From positions 1 to 64,000 of the forward strand of contig CAVVUS010000024.1 in assembly GCA_963751345.1 (NCBI GenBank): DNA of 64,000 nucleotides, written 5' to 3'. The notes beneath the pieces are model-generated. The model did not search any database. It was not told the DNA's origin and was given only the letters and a program-made list of their open reading frames with translations. Positions 22,613-34,204 of the stretch are shown here, in pieces. The DNA is from an uncultured Chloroflexia bacterium (lineage in GTDB: Bacteria; Chloroflexota; Anaerolineae; B4-G1; SLSP01). Position 1 is the first letter of the stretch; the number at the start of each line of letters is the position of its first letter. The translations under genes were made by a program, and so were the position numbers.

Positions 22613-22746
22613 TGTCATCCTGAGCGGGTCATGCATGCTGACCACAATGCAGACCATCACAGCGAAGGATCTTTGTCCTGAAGGCTGAGATCCTTCGCTG
22701 GAACACGCTGTCCTGCAGGCAGTCCGCGAGACCCGCTCGGATGACA
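22613..22746. repeat. Nested palindromic element TGTCATCCTGAGCG...CAGCGAAGGATCT...AGATCCTTCGCTG...CGCTCGGATGACA
   Basis: Outer ~17-bp and inner 13-bp inverted repeats; a partial relative lies at 53666..53718. Confidence 0.8.
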
Positions 22747-22785
22747 ATCAACCCTACCGTGGAATACTCGGCGAAAGGAAAGGGC

Positions 22786-24479
22786 ATGACCCTACTTACA
22801 AATCACCTAGGCTTCGTCCCCAGCGCCGCCAAGGCCTGCCTGCTGGGCGGACCGCTGGAGACCGGGTTCGTCGTCCGCGACACGGCAAGCGGCGAGATCG
22901 TCTTCCGCGGCGACCTCACCCGCGTGCCGAGCGACTTTGGCGTCTACACCGTGGGCCGCTTCGACGCACTGACCACGCCCGGCACCTACGTCGTCGAGGC
23001 GGCGGGGGAGCGCTCGCACCCCTTCCGTATCGCGCCCGACGTCTACGACGCCACGCTCCGGCAGATCGTCGGCTACTTCACGCTCCAGCGCTGCGGCGAC
23101 ACCGACCGCGGCTGGAACGGCCCGTGCCACCTCGACGACGGCGTGCGCGGCGACACGCTGGCCCACCAGGACGTCACCGGCGGCTGGCACGACGCCTGCG
23201 ACCTGCGCAAGTGGGTCGAGGCGACGCTCTTCGGGATGCTGGGGCTGGGACAGGTCGCGCTGGCCAGCGGCGCGGACGCGGACGTGCTCGACGAGCTGCG
23301 CTGGGGCAACAGCTACTTCCTCAAGATGCAGGAGCCCGCGGGCTACATCATGAACTACGTCGGCGGCGACTACTTCGTCCACGCCGACAACAACCGCTGG
23401 ACCGACAACGTGATCGATGGGCGCGACGACCGCAACGGTCATTCCGACGACCGCAACGGTCATTCTGATGACCGCAACGGTCATTCCGACGACCGCGTCA
23501 TCGACGTCCGCCCGTGCCACACGCAAGCGCAGTGGCGCTTCGTGATGGCCGAGGCGACGATGGCCGGGCTCACGCGCGACGCGGACCCGGACTACGCCCA
23601 GACGTGCGAGGCGGCGGCCCGGCGCTGCCTGGCCTGGCTGCGGCGGAGGGGCCGTACGCACACCGCCGGCCAGTTGGGGGAGGCGATCGGGGCGCTGCTG
23701 GCGCTGCACGCGCTCGACGGCGAGGCGGCGCTGCTCGACCAGGCCGTGGCCTATGCCGGACAATTGCTCGCGCTGCAGGTCACCCGGCCCGTGGACAGTC
23801 GCTCGCCCGGTCTGGGGCTTCTTCTGGGAGCGCCGCGATCCCGGCCAGGCGCCGATGTCGCTGGAGCCCTTCAAGGCGATCGCGGAGGGCTGCTGGCCGC
23901 TGCTCGGGCTGACGCTGCTGCTGGAGACGGCCCCCGACCACCCGCAGGCCGACGCGTGGCGCACGGCCGTGGCGAGCTTCTGCGGCGACTATCTCGCGCC
24001 GATGGCGGCCCGCAACGCGTTCGGGATGGTGCCCTTCGGGCTCTACCGGCGTCGCCGTGGGCGGCGACCGCCAGCTCGGGAAGTTCTGGTATCGCTGGTT
24101 CATGGAGGCCAACCCCGACTGGTACGTGGGCATCAACGCCAACCTCGCCTCGACCGGCGTGGGCCTCGCCAAGGCGGCGCGGCTGCTCGGCAAGCCCGAA
24201 TGGGCGGCGCTGGCCCAGCGGCAACTCGACTGGATCCTGGGCGTCAATCCCTTCGACGCCAGCACCGTGATGGGCGCGGGCTACAACAACCCACAGCACA
24301 TGTTCGGCGGCGAGTTCTACCCGCCCACGCCCTTCCTGCCCGGCGCGGTGATGAACGGCATCAGCGGCAACGAGGACGACGAGCCTCAGCTCCGGCCGGG
24401 TCAGTGGCAGGAGACCGAGTATTGGACGCCGATGGTGGCATTCACGATGTGGCTGATGGCAGAGTTGGGGCAGGGATAG
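22786..24479 (+). CDS. GH9-family glycoside hydrolase (Ig-like N-domain, no signal peptide), frameshifted
   Basis: LTNHLGF, LQRCG, DVTGGWHDACD, DELRWG, WILGVNPF, WQETEYW. Confidence 0.82.
23425..23496 (+). repeat. In-frame 21-bp tandem repeat, 3.4 units, encoding (DDRNGHS)3-DDR
   Basis: Unit GACGACCGCAACGGTCATTCC with two synonymous variants. Confidence 0.95.
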
Positions 24480-25874: not shown

Positions 25875-26996
25875 ATGAACCATCGCGAGCGCTTCATCGC
25901 TGTTATGGAGTACCAGCCCGTGGACCGCGTCCCCAACTGGGAGCTCGGCGTCTGGGGCCAGACGCAGGATCGCTGGGAGGCCGAGGGGCTCGATCCCACG
26001 TCGCTCCACTGGAACTGGTTCCCGGGTGAGGCCTCGCTGGGGATGGATCCCAAGGAGTTCATCTACTTCTGCGGCGATCCGCTGCCGCGCTACGAGGTCG
26101 AGGTCTTCGAGGAGGACGAGCGGATCATCGTCTTCCGCGATGAGAAGGGAATGACCCGCAAAGGGCTGAAGGAGGGCAGCGCCCACGGCACCCGCGCCTC
26201 GATGGATACCTTCATCGACTTCCCGGTCCACGATATGGCGGACTGGAAGGAGGTCAAGAAGCGCTTCGACCCCACCAGCCCGCAGCGGCTCGAACCCTAC
26301 TGGGACGTCCTCCGCGTCGAGGGGTGGCGCGGACGCACGCATCCGCTGGTCTTCGGCCCCAACTGCACCACCCTGGGCTTCTACTGGTGGGCGCGCGAGC
26401 TGATGGGCACCGAGGGCGTCTCCTACGGGTGGTACGACCAGCCCGCGCTGATGCACGACATCATGGAGCACCACGCCGACTTCCTCATCGAGGGCGCCCG
26501 CCCCGTGCTCGAAAGGACGACCGTCGAGTACGTCTGCCTCAACGAGGACATGGCGATGAAGAACGGGCCGCTGCTGAGCCCGCGGACCTACAAGGAGTTC
26601 ATCTTCCCGCGGATGCGGCGCGTCGTCGACTTCTTCAAATCCCACGGCGTGCGCTATGTGGCGGTCGACACCGACGGCAACCCCGAGGCCTTGATCCCGC
26701 TGCTGATGGACGCGGGCGTCGACATCGTCTGGCCGCTGGAGCGGGCGGCCGACCAGGACCCGGTGCGGCTGCGCGCGAAGTTCGGCAAATCGCTCCGGCT
26801 CTGGGGCGGCGTCGATAAACGGGTCCTGGCGCAGGGACCCGCGGCGATCGACGCGCACCTACAAGCCCTCGTCCCCCTGATCGAGGAGGGCGGCTACATC
26901 CCCATCGTCGACCACACCGTCCCGCCCGACGTGAGTTGGGCCAACTTCCAATACTACATGCAGCAGAAGGACAAGCTCCTGCGCGGAGACCTGTAA
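25875..26996 (+). CDS. Uroporphyrinogen decarboxylase/MtaA-CmuA superfamily protein
   Basis: MNHRERF...VDRVP, EDMAMKNGPLLSP, DTDGN, LWGGVDKR, GGYIPIVDHTVPPDVS. Confidence 0.85.
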   Translation: MNHRERFIAVMEYQPVDRVPNWELGVWGQTQDRWEAEGLDPTSLHWNWFPGEASLGMDPKEFIYFCGDPLPRYEVEVFEEDERIIVFRDEKGMTRKGLKEGSAHGTRASMDTFIDFPVHDMADWKEVKKRFDPTSPQRLEPYWDVLRVEGWRGRTHPLVFGPNCTTLGFYWWARELMGTEGVSYGWYDQPALMHDIMEHHADFLIEGARPVLERTTVEYVCLNEDMAMKNGPLLSPRTYKEFIFPRMRRVVDFFKSHGVRYVAVDTDGNPEALIPLLMDAGVDIVWPLERAADQDPVRLRAKFGKSLRLWGGVDKRVLAQGPAAIDAHLQALVPLIEEGGYIPIVDHTVPPDVSWANFQYYMQQKDKLLRGDL

Positions 26997-27009: not shown

Positions 27010-27080
27010 CCACAGGATCCACAGGATTCGGTATCGGCGACGCGGCGCCTCTGCATCCTGTGGATCCTGTGAATCCTGTC
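27010..27080. repeat. Short-period ACAGGAT direct/inverted repeat element
   Basis: CACAGGATCCACAGGAT ... ATCCTGTGGATCCTGTGAATCCTGT. Confidence 0.75.
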
Positions 27081-27121: not shown

Positions 27122-27150
27122 TTGTGTCCTGTCCCGCTCATCGGTATAAT
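27122..27150 (+). promoter_or_regulatory. Sigma70 promoter TTGTGT-N17-TATAAT for the NMNAT-vWA-PK-like-nadE operon
   Basis: Exact 17-nt spacing and perfect -10. Confidence 0.65.
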
Positions 27151-27207
27151 GGCGGCGAATTTGACCGCGCATTACGTACAGAGGGAATCAAGGACGAGAA
27201 AGAAACC

Positions 27208-27770
27208 GTGGACCCTCACCGATCCTACCGTCGCATCGGCATGATCGCCCGCTGGCGGCCCGTCCATCTGGGACAGGTGCCCGTGCTCCGTGGGCTCTGC
27301 GACCACGCTGACTACGCCCTGATCGGTATCGGCAGCGCCAATCGCTACAACGCGCGCAACCCCTTCACGGTCGAGGAGACCGCCGATATGATCCGCCTGG
27401 TGCTCCGACGGCCGAGCAACTACACGCTGTCCCTGTGGACGACCTCGACGACGGCCCCCGTTGGCGCGCGATGGTCGTCGGGATCTTCGGCCCGCTGGAC
27501 GCCTTCGTCACCGCCAACCCGTATGTGGCCGGCCTGTTGAAAGACGACTACCCGATCCTCCGCCCGGTCGCGCTCGTGCCGACAGAGGACCGCGTCCGTA
27601 TTGACGGCACGATGGTGCGCCGCGCGATGGCCGGAGGCGATGCCTGGACCGACCTGGTCCCAAATGAGATAGCGGCTTACATCAAAGAGCACCGGCTCGA
27701 CGAGCGCTTCCGCCGCGAGTTCGGCTTGGAAACCCTGGCAATGGAGACGGTGCTGGATGTTGGAGGATGA
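27208..27770 (+). CDS. NMN adenylyltransferase-like cytidylyltransferase (NadM type), frameshift ~27430
   Basis: ARWRPVHLGQ (variant of GRFQPxHxGH), IGIGSAN, RNPFT, TANPYV, IDGTMVRR...W..LVP. Confidence 0.8.
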
Positions 27771-27909
27771 CGTCGGGTGTCAGAAGTCGGAAGCCTATCC
27801 GGAAGCCAGCCGGTCTAGGCCGGAGCTGCCCGAATCCGGATCTGGCCTCGGACTTCAAGCAACCAGTATCAACAACCACCACACCTTCCAGTTCCACTCA
27901 AGGAGGCCT

Positions 27910-28868
27910 TATGTATACCTGGGATGAGGACACCAGCGGTTGGTACGGCGCCGCGAAGTACAGGTACGGCACGACCGGCGCGGAGCGCCGGCGCGGCGGC
28001 GACAAGGGCAGCGGCAGCGGCCCGCGGACCTAGCCGAGGAAAGGTGGCCCGAACGAGAAGATCATCGACCCGCGCAAGCGCATCACCACGGGATCGCCCA
28101 ACCCGCTGATCATCGCCGTCGACGTGACAGGCTCGATGGCCAGCTGGCCGCCGAGATCTTCGACCGGCTGCCCCTGCTCTACAACACGCTCGTCCAGTAC
28201 CGCCCCGACCTGGAGATCTGCTTCGCCGCCATCGGCGATGCGGCTGTCGACCAGTGGCCGCTGCAGGTGACGACCTTCGCCAGCGGCTTCGATCTGGAGC
28301 AGCTTCTGGGTTCGCTCTACGGCGAGGGCGGCGGCGGCGACGCGCCGGAAAGCTATGGCCTCTTCGCCCATTGGGTCAACACCCACGTCACGATTCCCCA
28401 GACCGCCGAGACGCCCTTCCTGATCGTCTTCGGCGATGCGCCCATGCACCCCACGATTCCCCAAGAGCAGATCGCCCACTACCTGGGCGACAACATGAGC
28501 CGGGACGTCGACGCCTTCGAGGCCTGGCAGACGCTCAGCAAGCGATGGAACATGTGGTTCCTCCGCCGTCCCACCGGCAGGCCGGGCGATCGCGTGGACA
28601 AGCAGTGGGCGCAGGCCATCCCCGAGCAGAAGATCTTCCACATCCAGGACGAGCAGCGCGCCGTGGACTACGCGATGGGCCTTATCGCCCGCGCCTGGGG
28701 TCACTTCGGGGACTTCCAGGAGAACATGCGCGCCCGCCAGAGCGAGGACAAGGTTGCCGAGGTCAGCGGCTGATCGAGCTCAAGTGCCCCCGCTGCGGCG
28801 CGCCCATCCCCGTCGACGCGCACGGGCTGTTCAAGTGCACCTATTGCGACGCGACGCTGAAGCTATAA
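27910..28868 (+). CDS. vWA-domain protein with C-terminal Zn ribbon, frameshifted
   Basis: RBS AAGGAGG; IIAVDVTGSM (MIDAS), AAIGDA, GEGGGGDAPESY, VFGDA; tail CPRCGA...CTYC. Confidence 0.8.
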
Positions 28869-29758
28869 GACTCCACGCCATCGTCACCGCCCCACCTTAC
28901 GCGCCCTTCCTGGAGGAGGTGGCGCGGCATCCCATCGTCTCGGGGCTGCGGCTCAACACCGTGATGCCGCTGCGCGAGGGGCCGGAGGAGGCACTGGCGC
29001 GGCTCTCCGCCCTCGGGCAGCCGCTCTGGGTCGATCTCAAAGGCCGGCAATTGCGCGTGGTCGGCGCCGCGATCCCGCCCTACTCCGAGGTACGACTGAG
29101 CCATCGCATCAGCGTGCGAACGCCGGTGGACGCCTTCTTCTCCGACGGCACCGAATGCGTGCGCGTCGCTGCCGTCGACGGCGACCGGTTGATCCTGGAG
29201 GACGGCCCCCGGCGCCTGGTCGGGCCGGGCGAATCCGTGAACATCGTCGACACCTCGCTGCAGATCGAGGGCACGCTGACCGAGACGGACCGAACGTACC
29301 TGGCCGCGATGAGATCGCTCGGTCTGAAGCGCGTGATGCTCTCCTACGTCGAGAGCCCTGCCGATGCGAACGAAGTGTGCGATCTGCTCCCTGGCGCGGA
29401 GGTGATGCTGAAGATCGAATCCGAGAAGGGCCTGGCCTACGCGCGCGAGCATGGTGCGGCGCAGGGTCGCCTGATGGCGGCGCGCGGCGACCTCTACGTC
29501 GAGGTGCTGCGCCCGCACCGAATCGTCGGCGCGCTGCGAGACATCGTCACTGCCGACCCCGACGCCGTGGTCGCCAGCCGCATCTTCGACTCGCTGGCAC
29601 GCCATCCGGTGCCGGAGAGCGCCGACATCGGCGACGTGGCCTTTCTGCTGAGCCTTGGCTACCGGACCTTCATGCTCGGCGACCACGTCTGCTTTCAGCG
29701 CGACGCCGTGCTGGAGGCGCTCAACCTGCTGGAAGCCGTCGCAGGGCAATTCCCGTAG
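28865..29758 (+). CDS. Minimal pyruvate-kinase-like enzyme (barrel and B domain, no C-terminal regulatory domain)
   Basis: RLN, DLKGRQLR, LSYVES, KIES, ARGDLYVE, ASRIFDS, ADIGDV and MLGD align in order with PK motifs; apparent start is ATA overlapping the vWA stop. Confidence 0.8.
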   Translation: MRLHAIVTAPPYAPFLEEVARHPIVSGLRLNTVMPLREGPEEALARLSALGQPLWVDLKGRQLRVVGAAIPPYSEVRLSHRISVRTPVDAFFSDGTECVRVAAVDGDRLILEDGPRRLVGPGESVNIVDTSLQIEGTLTETDRTYLAAMRSLGLKRVMLSYVESPADANEVCDLLPGAEVMLKIESEKGLAYAREHGAAQGRLMAARGDLYVEVLRPHRIVGALRDIVTADPDAVVASRIFDSLARHPVPESADIGDVAFLLSLGYRTFMLGDHVCFQRDAVLEALNLLEAVAGQFP

Positions 29759-29771
29759 GCCGATCCTCACG

Positions 29772-31303
29772 ATGAAGATCGCGCTCGCCCAGATCAACAC
29801 CACCGTCGGCGACCTCGCCGGCAACGTGGCGCGGTGTCTCGACGCCATCCACGAGGCCGGACGCCAGGGGGCCGACCTGGTGGTGCTGCCGGAGATGGCG
29901 ATCCCCGGCTACCCGCCGCGCGACATCCTGCTCGACACCAGCTTTGTCGACGCCGTGGGCGAGGCGACGCAGGACTTGGCCCGCCGCGCGGCGGGCGGCC
30001 CGCCGGCCCTGGTCGGCACCGTCGTGCCCAGCGGCGCGACGACGGTCAAGCATCCCGGCCTCTACAACGCCGCCGTGCTTCTCCGGGACGGCGAGGCCAC
30101 GATGGCAGCCGCCAAGCGCCTGCTCCCGGCCTACGACGTCTTCCTCGAACCGCGCTGGTTCGTGCCCGGTCCGCCATCGGCGCCGGTGACGATTGCGGGC
30201 CGGCGCGTGGGCGTCCTGATCTGCGAGGACATGTGGGACGAGAGCTACCCGGTCCACCCGCCCGCCGATCTGCTGGCGGCGGGCGCGGACGTGCTCGTAG
30301 CGCTCGCCGCCGTGCCCTACCGGCAGGGATCATGGACGAACGCCTCAACCACGCGCGGCGCCCCGGCTGCCCCCTGGTGCACGTCAACCTCTGCGGCGCG
30401 ACCGACGAGCTGATCTTCGACGGGCGCAGCTTCGCCGTCGATGCAGGTGGGGAGATCATCGCCCGACTTCCCGGCTTTGAGGAGGCGATCCGGGTCGTCG
30501 ATCTCGAAGCCGCCGTACCCCTCGCGCCGGAGGAGACCGACCTGCAGGAGGAGCGCTTCCGGGCGCTGACGCTGGGCATCCGCGACTTCGCGCGCAAGAA
30601 CGGCATCGCACGCGCCTTCCTGGGGCTCTCGGGCGGGGTCGACTCCGCCGTCGTCGCCGTCCTTGCCGCAGAGGCGCTGGGGCCTGCCAACGTCACCGCG
30701 GTCGCGATCCCCTCGCGCTACTCCGATCCGCGGTCCACCGAATGCGCGGAGGCGCTCGCGGGAGCGCTGGGCATCGGCTTCGAGGTCGTGCCGCTTGAGC
30801 CCCTGCACAGCGCTGCCGAATCCGCCCTCGGCCCGTGGCTGGACGGCACCGCCGCGGAGAACGTCCAGGCCCGGCTGCGGATGCTGATCCTGATGGCCCT
30901 CGTCAACCACCACGGCGGGATGCTGCTCAACACCAGCAACAAGACCGAGCTGGCGCTGGGCTATGGCACCCTCTACGGCGACCTGGCGGGTACGCTCTCG
31001 CCCATCGGCGACCTCACCAAGCCGCAGGTCTACGACCTCGCGCGCTGGATCCAGGCGACGCGCGGCGGCATCCTCCCCGACTTCGTATTGAGCCGCCCCC
31101 CCTCGGCCGAACTCAAGCCCGACCAGGTCGATCCCTTCGACTATCCCACCGTCGCGCCCGCGCTGGAGCGCCTCGTCCGCGCCAACCGCAGCAACGCCGC
31201 CCTCCGCCGCTCCGAGCACAAGCGCTGGCACCACGGCATCATCCTCAAGGTCAGCGAGAAAGCCTTCGGCACCGGCCGCCTCATCCCCGTCACGCGGCGG
31301 TAG
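29772..31303 (+). CDS. nadE: Glutamine-dependent NAD+ synthetase, frameshift ~30325
   Basis: KIALAQIN, LPEM, KRLLP, ICEDMW (glutaminase E-K-C); GLSGGVDS, ENVQARLR, TSNKTE, GYGTLYGD, PSAEL. Confidence 0.92.
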
Positions 31304-31470: not shown

Positions 31471-32312
<842 letters not shown>

Positions 32313-32379
32313 GCCGTTGCCCGGCATCTGCTATAATGGGATTGAGAATACGTTCGAAAAGCCGAAGCAGGCGATCCAC

Positions 32380-32948
32380 ATGACGACGCAGAGCGAGCGA
32401 ATCGCACAGCGGCAGGCACGCGCCAGGCAGATCGTGGCACGGATACGTGAGATTCTCCCGGCTGCACTCAAAGCACATCCCGTGGCCGCCGCCTACGTCT
32501 ACGGCTCCGTGGCACGCGGCACGCCCCTCCCGACGAGCGATCTCGATATCGCCCTGATCGCCCAGTCGCTGACCCTATCGCCATACGGGCAACTGACGCT
32601 GGAGATCAAAATCCAGGCGGACATCGAGGATGCCGCACGTACAGACATGGAAGTCGCCCGTGCAGATACGGGAGACGCATCCGTAGAGGCGACCGATGTT
32701 GACATACGGATAGGGAAGAGCGGATCTCCCTTCCCTCGGTCGATGTCCGAATCATCAACGGTGCGCCACTGCTGGTGCAGGGGCGCATCCTCCAGGAGGG
32801 CATATTGGTCTACGAGGGCGACCACCAAACACGAGTGAACTTCGAGGTAGCCACCCTGGGACGCTACTTCGACTATGCCCCTATTGCCAGGCGGCTTCAG
32901 CAGACCCTGCTGGATCACGTCCGCCGGGAGGGAATATTCCATGGTTGA
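32380..32948 (+). CDS. Minimal nucleotidyltransferase antitoxin (MntA-like), frameshift ~32735
   Basis: YVYGSVARG...SDLDIA (GS-x10-DxD); VDVRIINGAPL...ILQEGILVY in second frame; extended -10 TGCTATAAT upstream. Confidence 0.85.
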
Positions 32949-33383
32949 CCCAGCGCTCGTGTCCTCACGCATCAACCAACTCCGGGACTATCTGTCAAAG
33001 CTGCGCGTCCTGGCAGGTCTCAGTCCCGAAGACTTCGGCACGGACTTCAAGAACATCGAAAGCGCCAAGCACCTCTTACAGGTAGCGATTGCGTGCTGCC
33101 TCGATCTTGCGCAGCACATCATCGCGGATGCCGGCTTTCGCACCCCGAACGATTACTATGATGCGTTTGTGATCCTGTCGGAACACGATATCGTTCCGGT
33201 CGGCTTTCTACCGACGCTCAGGCAGATGGTCAGCTTTCGCAATCGCGTGGTCCACCTCTACTGGGAAGTCGACAGTGCGATGGTCTACCAGATCCTTCAG
33301 GAGAACCTGGTAGACTTCGACACCTACGTCGGCTACGTCCTGGACTACACCGAGGGAACCACAGGCAATCACCATCCGGCTGA
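32941..33383 (+). CDS. HEPN/DUF86 RNase toxin (HepT-like); 3' end approximate
   Basis: LQVAIACCLDLAQHII, FRNRVVHLY (R-x4-H-x-Y); overlaps the MNT stop. Confidence 0.85.
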
Positions 33384-33404
33384 CCGCCGATGGCTGACCG
33401 CTCC

Positions 33405-34183
33405 CTACTTCCCCATCGCCCGCAGCGCCTGCAGGCTCCGCGCCGAGACGTCGAAGCCGAAACCGTCCTCGTTGCCTTCCTCGACAACGTACCAGACCGG
33501 GTCGTGGAGCGTCTCGATAACGTCCCAGATCGTGTCCCAATCGGCCTCGCCCTCGCCGATAACCGTGCCCGGCCCGCCGCCGTAGTCCTTCAGGTGAATC
33601 GCCGCGCTCGGCCGGGGAATTTCCGCAGCATCGCGATAGGGTCGCCATCGCCCACGGCGCAGTTGCCGATGTCCATCTGCATCACGACGTCGTCGACCGT
33701 GTGGCTGAAGAGGATCTCCCAGGCCGTCTCGTCGCCGTGATAGACAAAGTCGAAGGGATGCGCGTGATAGCCGGTCCACATCCCCAGGGGCTTGAGCGTC
33801 TCCGCGGCGCGGTTGAGGATGTCGGCCAGTTCCAGCGTCGTGTCGAAGGTGCTCATCCGCTGCCTGTCCGCCGCGACGATCACGAAGTTGTTGCCCAGGA
33901 TCTGATTCAGCTCGATGGTGCGCTTCAGGTTGTCGCCCAGCAGCGCGCCCGTCGCCAGGTGCATACCGCAACAGGCCAGCCCGGCGTCGTCGAACATCGC
34001 GCGCATCTCCGTGGGCTGGTGCCCCATCCACGCGAGTTCGTCACCGGGATAGCCCCACGGCTCGGCGCCCTCGTATCCGATCTCCGCCACCGACCTGAGT
34101 GCGGCGGCGAGATCCTTCTGCACCTCGCTGCGCACTGAGTAAAGCTGCAATCCAACCGGCACCCGCTTTGCGCTCTCCGTCAT
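33405..34183 (-). CDS. Sugar phosphate isomerase/epimerase (TIM barrel), frameshift ~33600
   Basis: GLQLYSVR, GYHAH, QMDIGN, IHLKD, YVVEE. Confidence 0.85.
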
Positions 34184-34204
34184 CGTCACTTTCCTCCTGA
34201 TCAA

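Follow-up and report, generated by a model that had tools for sequence, protein, structure and literature searches.

The terminal synthesis of nicotinamide adenine dinucleotide (NAD+) proceeds from nicotinate mononucleotide (NaMN) through nicotinate adenine dinucleotide to NAD+ in the canonical route, or from NaMN through nicotinamide mononucleotide (NMN) to NAD+ in Francisella, and proteins with a von Willebrand factor A (vWA) domain form, together with a Ser/Thr kinase and a PP2C, the TerY-P triad. We analysed a stretch of 64,000 nt (hereafter the window) of an uncultured Chloroflexia bacterium (GenBank assembly GCA_963751345.1, contig CAVVUS010000024.1, positions 1 to 64,000; genome G000), in which four co-directional genes on the plus strand, flanked by a URO-D-like gene (25875-26996) on one side and an FMN-reductase-like gene (31471-32259) on the other, encode an NMN adenylyltransferase (NMNAT)-like protein, a vWA-like protein with a zinc ribbon, a minimal pyruvate-kinase-like protein (mini-PK) and a paralogue of the glutamine-dependent NAD synthetase NadE. 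What is new in this cassette (Table 1) is a NAD synthesis/salvage operon with two unexplained core components.

As compared to the NadM and NadE of terminal NAD+ synthesis, the cassette draws on the same families (its NMNAT matches the archaeal models along their length and its NadE has the two-domain build), but its copies are extra ones, score below the equivalog cut-offs and are always split by the vWA-like and mini-PK genes. The mini-PK, in turn, shares with PykF/PykA the barrel and the KIE and ARGDL regions, but has ~297 instead of ~470 amino acids (aa), a short B-like insert and no C-terminal domain, and is always paired with the vWA-like gene. The phage and archaeal forms of the vWA/mini-PK pair, like the TerY-P triads, encode a MIDAS (metal-ion-dependent adhesion site)-type vWA next to a Ser/Thr kinase, except that the mini-PK occupies the place of the phosphatase, while the form found in the window has no kinase. 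The gene pairs of the phage NAD+ reconstitution pathways NARP1-3 (Adps+Namat, NAMPT+NMNAT and PnuC+NadR; NARP3 in PMC13464706) are likewise small NAD+-making sets, of which NARP2 uses an NMNAT; as far as the abstracts describe them, NadE, vWA and mini-PK are in none of the three, the cassette is without Adps/Namat, NAMPT and PnuC/NadR, and its four-gene form was not found in viral contigs. For vWA proteins of conflict systems a function as peptide-binding co-chaperones is put forward in the accessible portion of a study by the Aravind group (PMC9503650), whose text, to the same extent, contains neither 'pyruvate kinase' nor 'NAD synthetase', and 'pyruvate kinase' is also absent from the accessible portion of PMC7824862. 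Moreover, the cassette vWA matches phrog_2971 (E 1.6e-18) and, at ~26% identity, the Bixzunavirus gp260-type proteins of 140 Mycobacterium-phage records, all of which are annotated as hypothetical only; the gp260-type gene sits after a Ser/Thr kinase gene and is followed, in the one record inspected, by a PurA-like gene and not by a mini-PK (in Mycobacterium phage SrishMeg2525, L088, 152181-153200, gene 260 has the Ser/Thr kinase gene on one side and, on the other, a small gene followed by that of a PurA-like adenylosuccinate synthetase). Full-text literature searches, which covered main texts, brought up no description of the cassette, of the vWA/mini-PK pair or of the kinase triad.

The four genes constitute a conserved and horizontally spread cassette. 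A scan of 185,579 species (one genome each) gave 263 pattern-matched stretches, of which 242 encode a mini-PK relative, and synteny was counted over 81 loci (the best 80 of the 242 relatives, together with L007), with the gene order read by tblastn using the window pieces and an intact reference copy (L021) as queries. The best 80 loci belong mostly to Anaerolineae and other Chloroflexota (five are from Acidobacteriota), and their mini-PKs are 77-85% identical across the orders of Anaerolineae and ~70-74% in Acidobacteriota. The set of co-directional NMNAT, vWA/zinc-ribbon, PK-like and NadE genes, as given by the original prediction, is confirmed in the window by open reading frames (ORFs) and Pfam, and the same order recurs in the 81 loci wherever the contig reaches, which goes against the possibility, raised at the time, that the four genes are not syntenic in other genomes. 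A complete mini-PK was found in 80 of the 81 loci (a contig end cuts the remaining one), the vWA gene was found in 77 (the other four contigs begin at the PK gene), the NMNAT gene in 71 (the other ten contigs begin inside or just before the vWA or PK gene) and a downstream NadE in 70. The 11 loci without NadE comprise five that end at the PK gene and six (L011, L012, L014, L023, L062 and L067) that continue with other genes, and in L013 an insertion separates the PK gene from NadE, which follows 4.8 kb later. Clustering of all ORFs of the loci revealed no other conserved neighbour, the next real protein cluster being present in 11 loci. At the protein level, 8000 candidates were scored in a search with the mini-PK and 1799 of them retrieved; the best 120 are ~296-309 aa long and 77-99% identical, originate from metagenome-assembled genomes (MAGs) of Anaerolineae and are named either 'pyruvate kinase' or 'hypothetical'.

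The junction between the PK and NadE genes shows a peculiarity in five loci (L011, L013, L016, L023 and L040), where the last 22-35 codons of the PK gene are duplicated downstream of the intact PK, at a distance of 100 nt to 2.4 kb (in three of the five just before NadE). The duplicated ends suggest insertions at this junction, and the inserted genes, named from ORF translations alone, include an AAA ATPase (L011), a DUF262-like gene (L023) and redox enzymes (L013).

The cassette is accessory, its NMNAT and NadE being paralogues additional to the housekeeping set. The mini-PK is present in two of 151 sampled genomes of the class (G000 included), and G000 possesses a separate canonical pyk (contig C30, 361.9 bits), another NadE (contig C37, 253 bits as compared to 180 for the one in the cassette), nadC and four other cytidylyltransferase-family genes. 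A second NadE is also encoded elsewhere in all five other carrier genomes, scoring higher than the cassette copy in four of them (the exception is G154, where the cassette NadE has 180.7 bits and the second one 102.1), so that all six carrier genomes examined have a second NadE, which is the better-scoring one in five. These findings contradict the notion, considered together with the original prediction, that this pair of nadE and NMNAT genes is the sole housekeeping set, and the below-cut-off scores of all four cassette proteins are as expected of specialised paralogues. By the same token, it is hardly credible that the four genes are an alternative housekeeping NAD route (Francisella-like, with NadE and NadM) in which the vWA and PK genes are unrelated passengers. 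An NadM-type NMNAT with NadE is a known alternative pairing (reportedly set out by Sorci et al. in 2009), which would fit such a route; however, the vWA and PK genes lie between both NAD genes in essentially every locus and accompany NAD genes where the architecture diverges, a further NadE is present in carrier genomes, and only the mentioned two of the 151 genomes of the class carry the cassette, so that we regard this explanation as largely refuted by synteny.

With regard to family membership, all four proteins fall below the NCBIfam equivalog cut-offs. The NMNAT-like protein is a predicted NMN/NaMN adenylyltransferase of the archaeal NadM type: its intact homologue (L021) passes the cut-off of Pfam CTP_transf_like (24 vs 21) and stays under those of NF002243 (90.9 vs 127 bits) and TIGR01527 (80.5 vs 181.2), and the (H/T)xGH motif is present, with its first H found in 68 of 68 homologues, G in 66, and H (55) or Q (13) at the last position. 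The NadE has, both in the window pieces and in the intact homologue, an N-terminal CN-hydrolase and a C-terminal NAD-synthase PP-loop domain; the window translation contains SGGVDS, and the intact homologue is narrowly under the equivalog cut-off (NF010588, 458.4 vs 479 bits). Judged from their sequences, the NMNAT and NadE are paralogues of the two enzymes that complete NAD+ synthesis.

The mini-PK consists of an A-domain barrel with a short B-like insert and no C domain (~297 aa), Pfam matching nothing in it other than the barrel. It scores 43.2 bits for PF00224 (cut-off 30) and 51.3 bits for TIGR01064 (cut-off 306.4), the full-length pyruvate kinase architecture being absent, and aligns to pyruvate kinases of the PDB (E 5e-15) with KIE and ARGDL in register. 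K183, E185 and D209 are invariant in 16 sequences, and the Lys and Glu of KIE, together with the Asp of ARGDL, are presumably the catalytic residues of pyruvate kinase. In the vWA-like protein D72, G75, S76, G141-D145 and four Cys are invariant, and T74 is found in at least 90% of the sequences (33 in total), the MIDAS motif (DxSxS-type) being present after the first strand. Its best Pfam score is below the gathering score (VWA_CoxE, 14.8 vs 26.4 bits), it has no NCBIfam match, and its alignment profile gave just zinc-ribbon noise against the PDB sequences (best E 0.084). On the other hand, the Atlas model of a homologue of the cassette vWA (P0132, which is not the window's own protein) superimposes on a PF00092 cluster with TM values of 0.57/0.75, a predicted likeness that is sufficient for naming the fold of this homologue as vWA.

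The vWA-like protein and the mini-PK are an older obligate pair that forms the core of the cassette, and the link of this pair to NAD persists across divergent forms. Seeding a scan of metagenomes with an alignment of distant vWA relatives delivered 59 loci, in which we found NMNAT (40 loci), NadE (24), Nudix (12), NAD kinase (11), ADP-ribosylglycohydrolase (ARH; 8) and nicotinamidase-like (7) genes. These loci show three architectures: the four-gene form; a second form with the order NMNAT-kinase-vWA-PK-NadE on contigs of 72-76% G+C (L135, L136); and an extended operon of ~10 genes for NAD(P)/ADP-ribose salvage (L114-L133, L161), the first half of which holds an isochorismatase/nicotinamidase-like gene, NadE, NUDIX, NMNAT and a Ser/Thr kinase, and the second half the vWA, X289, the mini-PK, ARH, NAD kinase and sometimes an IU-nucleoside hydrolase. 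The named members of the extended operon were confirmed by Pfam, and the NAD kinase by a PDB profile search (E 4e-32). X289 is a conserved 289-aa protein with a basic C-terminal tail similar to that of the vWA next to it; it has no family match (PDB profile search E 0.29), FHA phosphopeptide-binding domains occur in three of its homologues (P0399, P0403 and P0404), and the named homologues come from MAGs of Woesearchaeota, Nanoarchaeota or 'archaeon' (DPANN). Together with the synteny in the 81 loci and with a vWA homologue fused to NUDIX (P0187), these divergent forms with nicotinamidase-like, Nudix, ARH and NAD kinase genes uphold the original prediction of a dedicated and undescribed NAD-linked operon.

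The zinc ribbon and the kinase exclude each other: 65 vWA genes with a ribbon have no kinase upstream (and none has one), and 41 of 47 ribbon-less ones do. As the carriers of either feature are related lineages, this exclusion is a property of clades and should not be counted as independent events. A quick tree (with the careful search unfinished and a very long outgroup branch, and therefore used for clade placement only) places the four-gene bacterial clade (support 97) beside the kinase-bearing high-GC loci, and in it a very long branch leads from the mini-PK to the pyk of G000 itself.

No phosphoribosyltransferase was seen within the extended-operon loci, on account of which a salvage step absent from these operons may come from the pair (with X289). 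An explanation along these lines would have the vWA/mini-PK pair (with X289 in archaea) contribute an enzyme step of NAD salvage and not ATP, for instance a non-homologous, PEP (phosphoenolpyruvate)-driven replacement for nicotinate phosphoribosyltransferase or a kinase activating ribosides or ADP-ribose, and the four genes would then represent a full route from nicotinate or its riboside to NAD+. It would account for operons that combine nicotinamidase-like, NMNAT, NadE, Nudix, ARH and NAD kinase genes and in which the nicotinate released by nicotinamidase has no visible next enzyme, for the weak NAPRTase-family match of G000 (24.1 bits), and for the retention of the pair in operons named from DPANN archaea, which have reduced genomes. 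We nevertheless consider it improbable, given that the motifs of the mini-PK are those of true pyruvate kinases and not of phosphoribosyltransferases, that phages hold the same pair with just a protein kinase, and that the scope of the observation is loci and not whole archaeal genomes, in which PncB may be located elsewhere.

The phage form was recovered by scanning viral contigs with the mini-PK alignment, which gave 23 loci on contigs of 45-485 kb and 30-56% G+C (L091-L113). In all 23, the gene immediately upstream of the mini-PK is vWA-like, and in 22 this vWA is in turn preceded by a DnaJ+Ser/Thr kinase gene, the three members of the triad being unknown in or absent from PHROGs. By hhalign (probability 100, 36-39% identity), the mini-PKs of viruses and of the cassette fall into one subfamily, and an ARH-like gene was found within 8 kb in seven loci by tblastn and in eight by ORF clustering. 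No NMNAT or NadE was present within 8 kb in the 23 loci, and a scan of viral contigs with the alignment of the four-gene-type vWA ended with 83 pattern matches and 0 confirmed, so the four-gene form was not found there. The proposed co-occurrence of the PK-like and vWA genes with NAD genes is seen in bacteria and the extended operons (NMNAT, NadE, NUDIX); for NMNAT and NadE it was not seen within 8 kb of the viral pair.

The vWA family at large is considerably wider than the cassette (1408 representative clusters match the profile, 926 of them at E <=1e-10), and most relatives are without the zinc ribbon, some having a short basic tail, some a U-box and one a NUDIX domain. Among the 20 longer representatives scanned, a U-box was found in eight (in one weakly, E 0.005) and NUDIX in one (P0187, a vWA homologue fused to NUDIX). 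The U-box-fused (E3-ligase-type) relatives include P0178, P0186, P0265, P0185, P0204, P0214 and P0172, and P0178 has eukaryote-like low-complexity runs. Such fusions, in conjunction with the Ser/Thr kinase that accompanies the pair in viral loci, the FHA domains of some X289 homologues and the scores of all four enzymes under the equivalog cut-offs, would be compatible with a signalling or protein-modification system instead of a bulk NAD supply, in which the vWA binds a target or ligand and the nucleotidyltransferase and amidoligase make or attach a product that is NAD-like or adenylylated, with a kinase in control in the older forms. This seems distinctly improbable to us: the NMNAT and NadE homologues match NAD enzymes over their whole length, the companions in the extended operon are ordinary enzymes of NAD(P) salvage and turnover, and no protein transferase such as ART or Fic was seen.

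On the basis of the families, motifs and gene neighbourhoods described above, our tentative reading, which we regard as quite possible though a little short of probable, is that the cassette may represent an accessory module for NAD+ synthesis or resynthesis, with the mini-PK providing a PEP-driven input of phosphoryl groups or ATP and the vWA-like protein regulating it. In such a module, the cassette would boost or rebuild the NAD+ pool, the mini-PK would turn PEP into ATP (or another phosphoryl input) for the ATP-consuming steps, and, being devoid of the C domain, could be free of the usual allosteric control. The vWA-like protein might act as a metal-dependent regulatory or sensor subunit of the mini-PK, and in the kinase-less bacterial form the zinc ribbon would replace the control exerted by the Ser/Thr kinase. 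The PEP-driven phosphorylation by the PK-like enzyme and the scaffold or sensor function of the vWA that the original prediction named are likewise hypothetical.

Several observations weigh against this tentative reading. NMNAT and NadE release pyrophosphate and AMP, not ADP, and a pyruvate kinase is consequently no direct recycler of their products. The occurrence of the viral pair apart from NMNAT and NadE means that the job of the pair need not concern NAD, and the position of all four proteins below the equivalog cut-offs implies that their substrates may differ from the canonical ones. Furthermore, related genomes contributed loci that are not independent of one another, and fewer separate events took place than the counts suggest. 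A conflict or stress setting of the cassette is conjecture: PADLOC-DB 2.0 gave 0 families for the NMNAT, mini-PK and NadE, and the 81 loci have no conserved mobile-element genes next to the cassette. The role in stress, defence or phage counter-defence that had been put forward for the operon is accordingly not backed by any PADLOC family match, apart from a weak resemblance to Cas12f in the tail of the vWA (E 1.6e-05, 23 bits) that stems from the zinc ribbon and was taken as spurious.

A broader proposition, which we deem unlikely, is that the vWA and the mini-PK might be an ancient and undescribed two-protein machine of large phages, DPANN archaea and bacteria, which would perform a step in the salvage of NAD(P)/ADP-ribose that depends on PEP and is controlled by either a Ser/Thr kinase or a zinc ribbon; examples, covered by the same judgement, would be a non-homologous stand-in for nicotinate phosphoribosyltransferase or a restart of NAD+ synthesis powered by PEP after a conflict has drained ATP and NAD+. 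The supply of NAD+ is a central battleground of bacteria, phages and competitors, and for DPANN archaea little of NAD salvage has been mapped. Against this background the cassette stands out as a sharply defined and strongly conserved set, in which the NAD enzymes enclose a vWA-like protein together with a regulator-less pyruvate kinase. If the pair turned out to couple energy to NAD salvage or to catalyse part of it, it would bring a new enzyme logic (PEP-driven and vWA-gated) into a textbook pathway, and would give a function to phrog_2971, to many proteins annotated as 'hypothetical' or 'pyruvate kinase' and to the conserved kinase triad of phages; the cassette proteins are small and soluble-looking.

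Three of the four cassette genes (NMNAT, vWA and NadE) are interrupted in the window copy, the frame of the mini-PK being open (Table 1). All four 1-base deletions are located at short runs of G or C. The cassette genes are single-frame in 80 of the 81 other loci, and the only other two-frame case is the NadE of L082. Conversely, 397 of 398 highly conserved residues (defined as positions conserved in at least 97% of the homologues) are retained in the window copy, the altered positions amounting to 0/54 in NMNAT, 1/133 in vWA, 0/105 in mini-PK and 0/106 in NadE, which points to either an assembly error or a very recent inactivation. We consider a locally poor consensus (i.e. an assembly error) somewhat likelier than true decay, and hence a probable cause of the lesions.

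The opposite view, according to which the window copy is a dead remnant made of true pseudogenes after a real and very recent inactivation, is possible but on balance doubtful. It draws on the accumulation of four frameshifts, one TAG and an ATA at the start position of the homologues within 4.2 kb, on the outlier position of the window with respect to the single-frame loci, on the presence in G000 of 55 coding-like ORFs of at least 1000 aa (errors are therefore not everywhere) and on the housekeeping genes that make the cassette dispensable. However, the retained residues amount to fewer changes than neutral decay with so many indels would leave, the indels lie at the short G or C runs, and unrelated neighbouring genes appear to be split too. 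A cellulase-like GH9 gene (22741-24479) has Pfam positions 1-196 in one frame and 324-434 in another, and as its middle part is in neither frame at least two frame changes are required; the MNT gene looks frameshifted near 32700-32780 (as read from ORF translations); and a xylose-isomerase-like TIM-barrel gene on the minus strand (33405-34204) is apparently divided into overlapping ORFs (33590-34204 and 33405-34031). Moreover, directly after the stop of the FMN-reductase-like gene there is an uninterrupted run of 54 A (32259-32312), which is unusual for a bacterial contig of 62% G+C, may be an assembly join or artefact, and points to a locally poor consensus.

Three salt-marsh metagenome runs (shares 0.05-0.10) provided short contigs of relatives at 88% likeness, among which an additional G at 28770 is seen in two and an additional C at 30328 in one, and one contig shows -2 at 28144 and -1 at 28150 with the frame not restored; being relatives and not the source, they give no decision on whether the indels of the window are errors. 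A per-contig comparison of ORF lengths, a crude proxy for frameshifts, did not single out contig C24 (median 293 aa vs 250-382 elsewhere). In another assembly, a single long ORF (P0134, 597 aa) runs through the vWA and mini-PK genes in shifting frames, which indicates that interrupted or mis-assembled copies of the cassette also exist elsewhere in high-GC data.

Of two further candidate lesions, one became less plausible and one was rejected. The window has ATA at the position of the homologues' PK ATG, and the suspicion that the PK gene is broken through the loss of its start is weakened by the variable spacing between the vWA and PK genes among loci (-4 to 177 nt) and by an in-frame GTG 30 nt upstream (Table 1). 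The HLGQ motif of the window NMNAT was ruled out as a lesion, since the same Q is found in 13 of the 68 homologues.

Table 1. Coordinates of the cassette genes, their interruptions and the associated sites in the window
Feature	Position (nt)	Strand	Remarks
Inverted repeat, 17 nt, perfect	27011-27027 / 27055-27071	.	27 nt between arms; repeat region 27011..27079
Promoter-like site TTGTGT, 17 nt, TATAAT	27122-27150	+	-35 at 27122-27127, -10 at 27145-27150
NMNAT-like gene (NadM archaeal type)	27241-27770	+	~176 aa; ORFs and Pfam CTP_transf_like E 0.007
NMNAT lesion	~27429/27430	+	1-base deletion
vWA-like gene with C-terminal CxxC...CxxC zinc ribbon	27911-28868	+	ORFs; MIDAS-type D-V-T-G-S, GGGGD
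vWA in-frame TAG	28031-28033	+	Tyr in homologues
vWA lesions	~28150/28151 and ~28770	+	1-base deletions
Mini pyruvate-kinase-like gene	28865 (or GTG 28835) to 29758	+	297 aa; Pfam PF00224 43.2 bits
Glutamine-dependent NadE paralogue	29772-31303	+	CN_hydrolase 76.2 bits, NAD_synthase 179.7 bits
NadE lesion	~30328	+	1-base deletion

The last three genes had been predicted to be translationally coupled or nearly so, and this is what we observed: the vWA stop TAA (28866-28868) overlaps the PK start position of the homologues, and 13 nt separate the PK stop from the NadE ATG. The gap between the NMNAT and vWA genes is 140 nt, and AAGGAGG precedes the vWA ATG. The sigma70 promoter that had been placed ahead of the four genes is confirmed in part, the TTGTGT-17-TATAAT site being present with a perfect -10 element; however, it was not listed by a consensus promoter scan (the single match of which, 27364-27392, is inside the NMNAT gene), as its -35 element agrees at just 3/6 positions, and we retain it as an unverified candidate promoter. 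The inverted repeat between the URO-D-like gene and the cassette overlaps three direct copies with 9-nt spacing, and the region is a possible terminator or operator whose belonging to the cassette is uncertain. Just downstream of the cassette (32377-33582) lies a toxin-antitoxin-like pair of an MNT nucleotidyltransferase and a HepT/HEPN gene, and MNT/HepT-like pairs also adjoin the cassette in L021 (8440-9226) and L062 (3006-3885).

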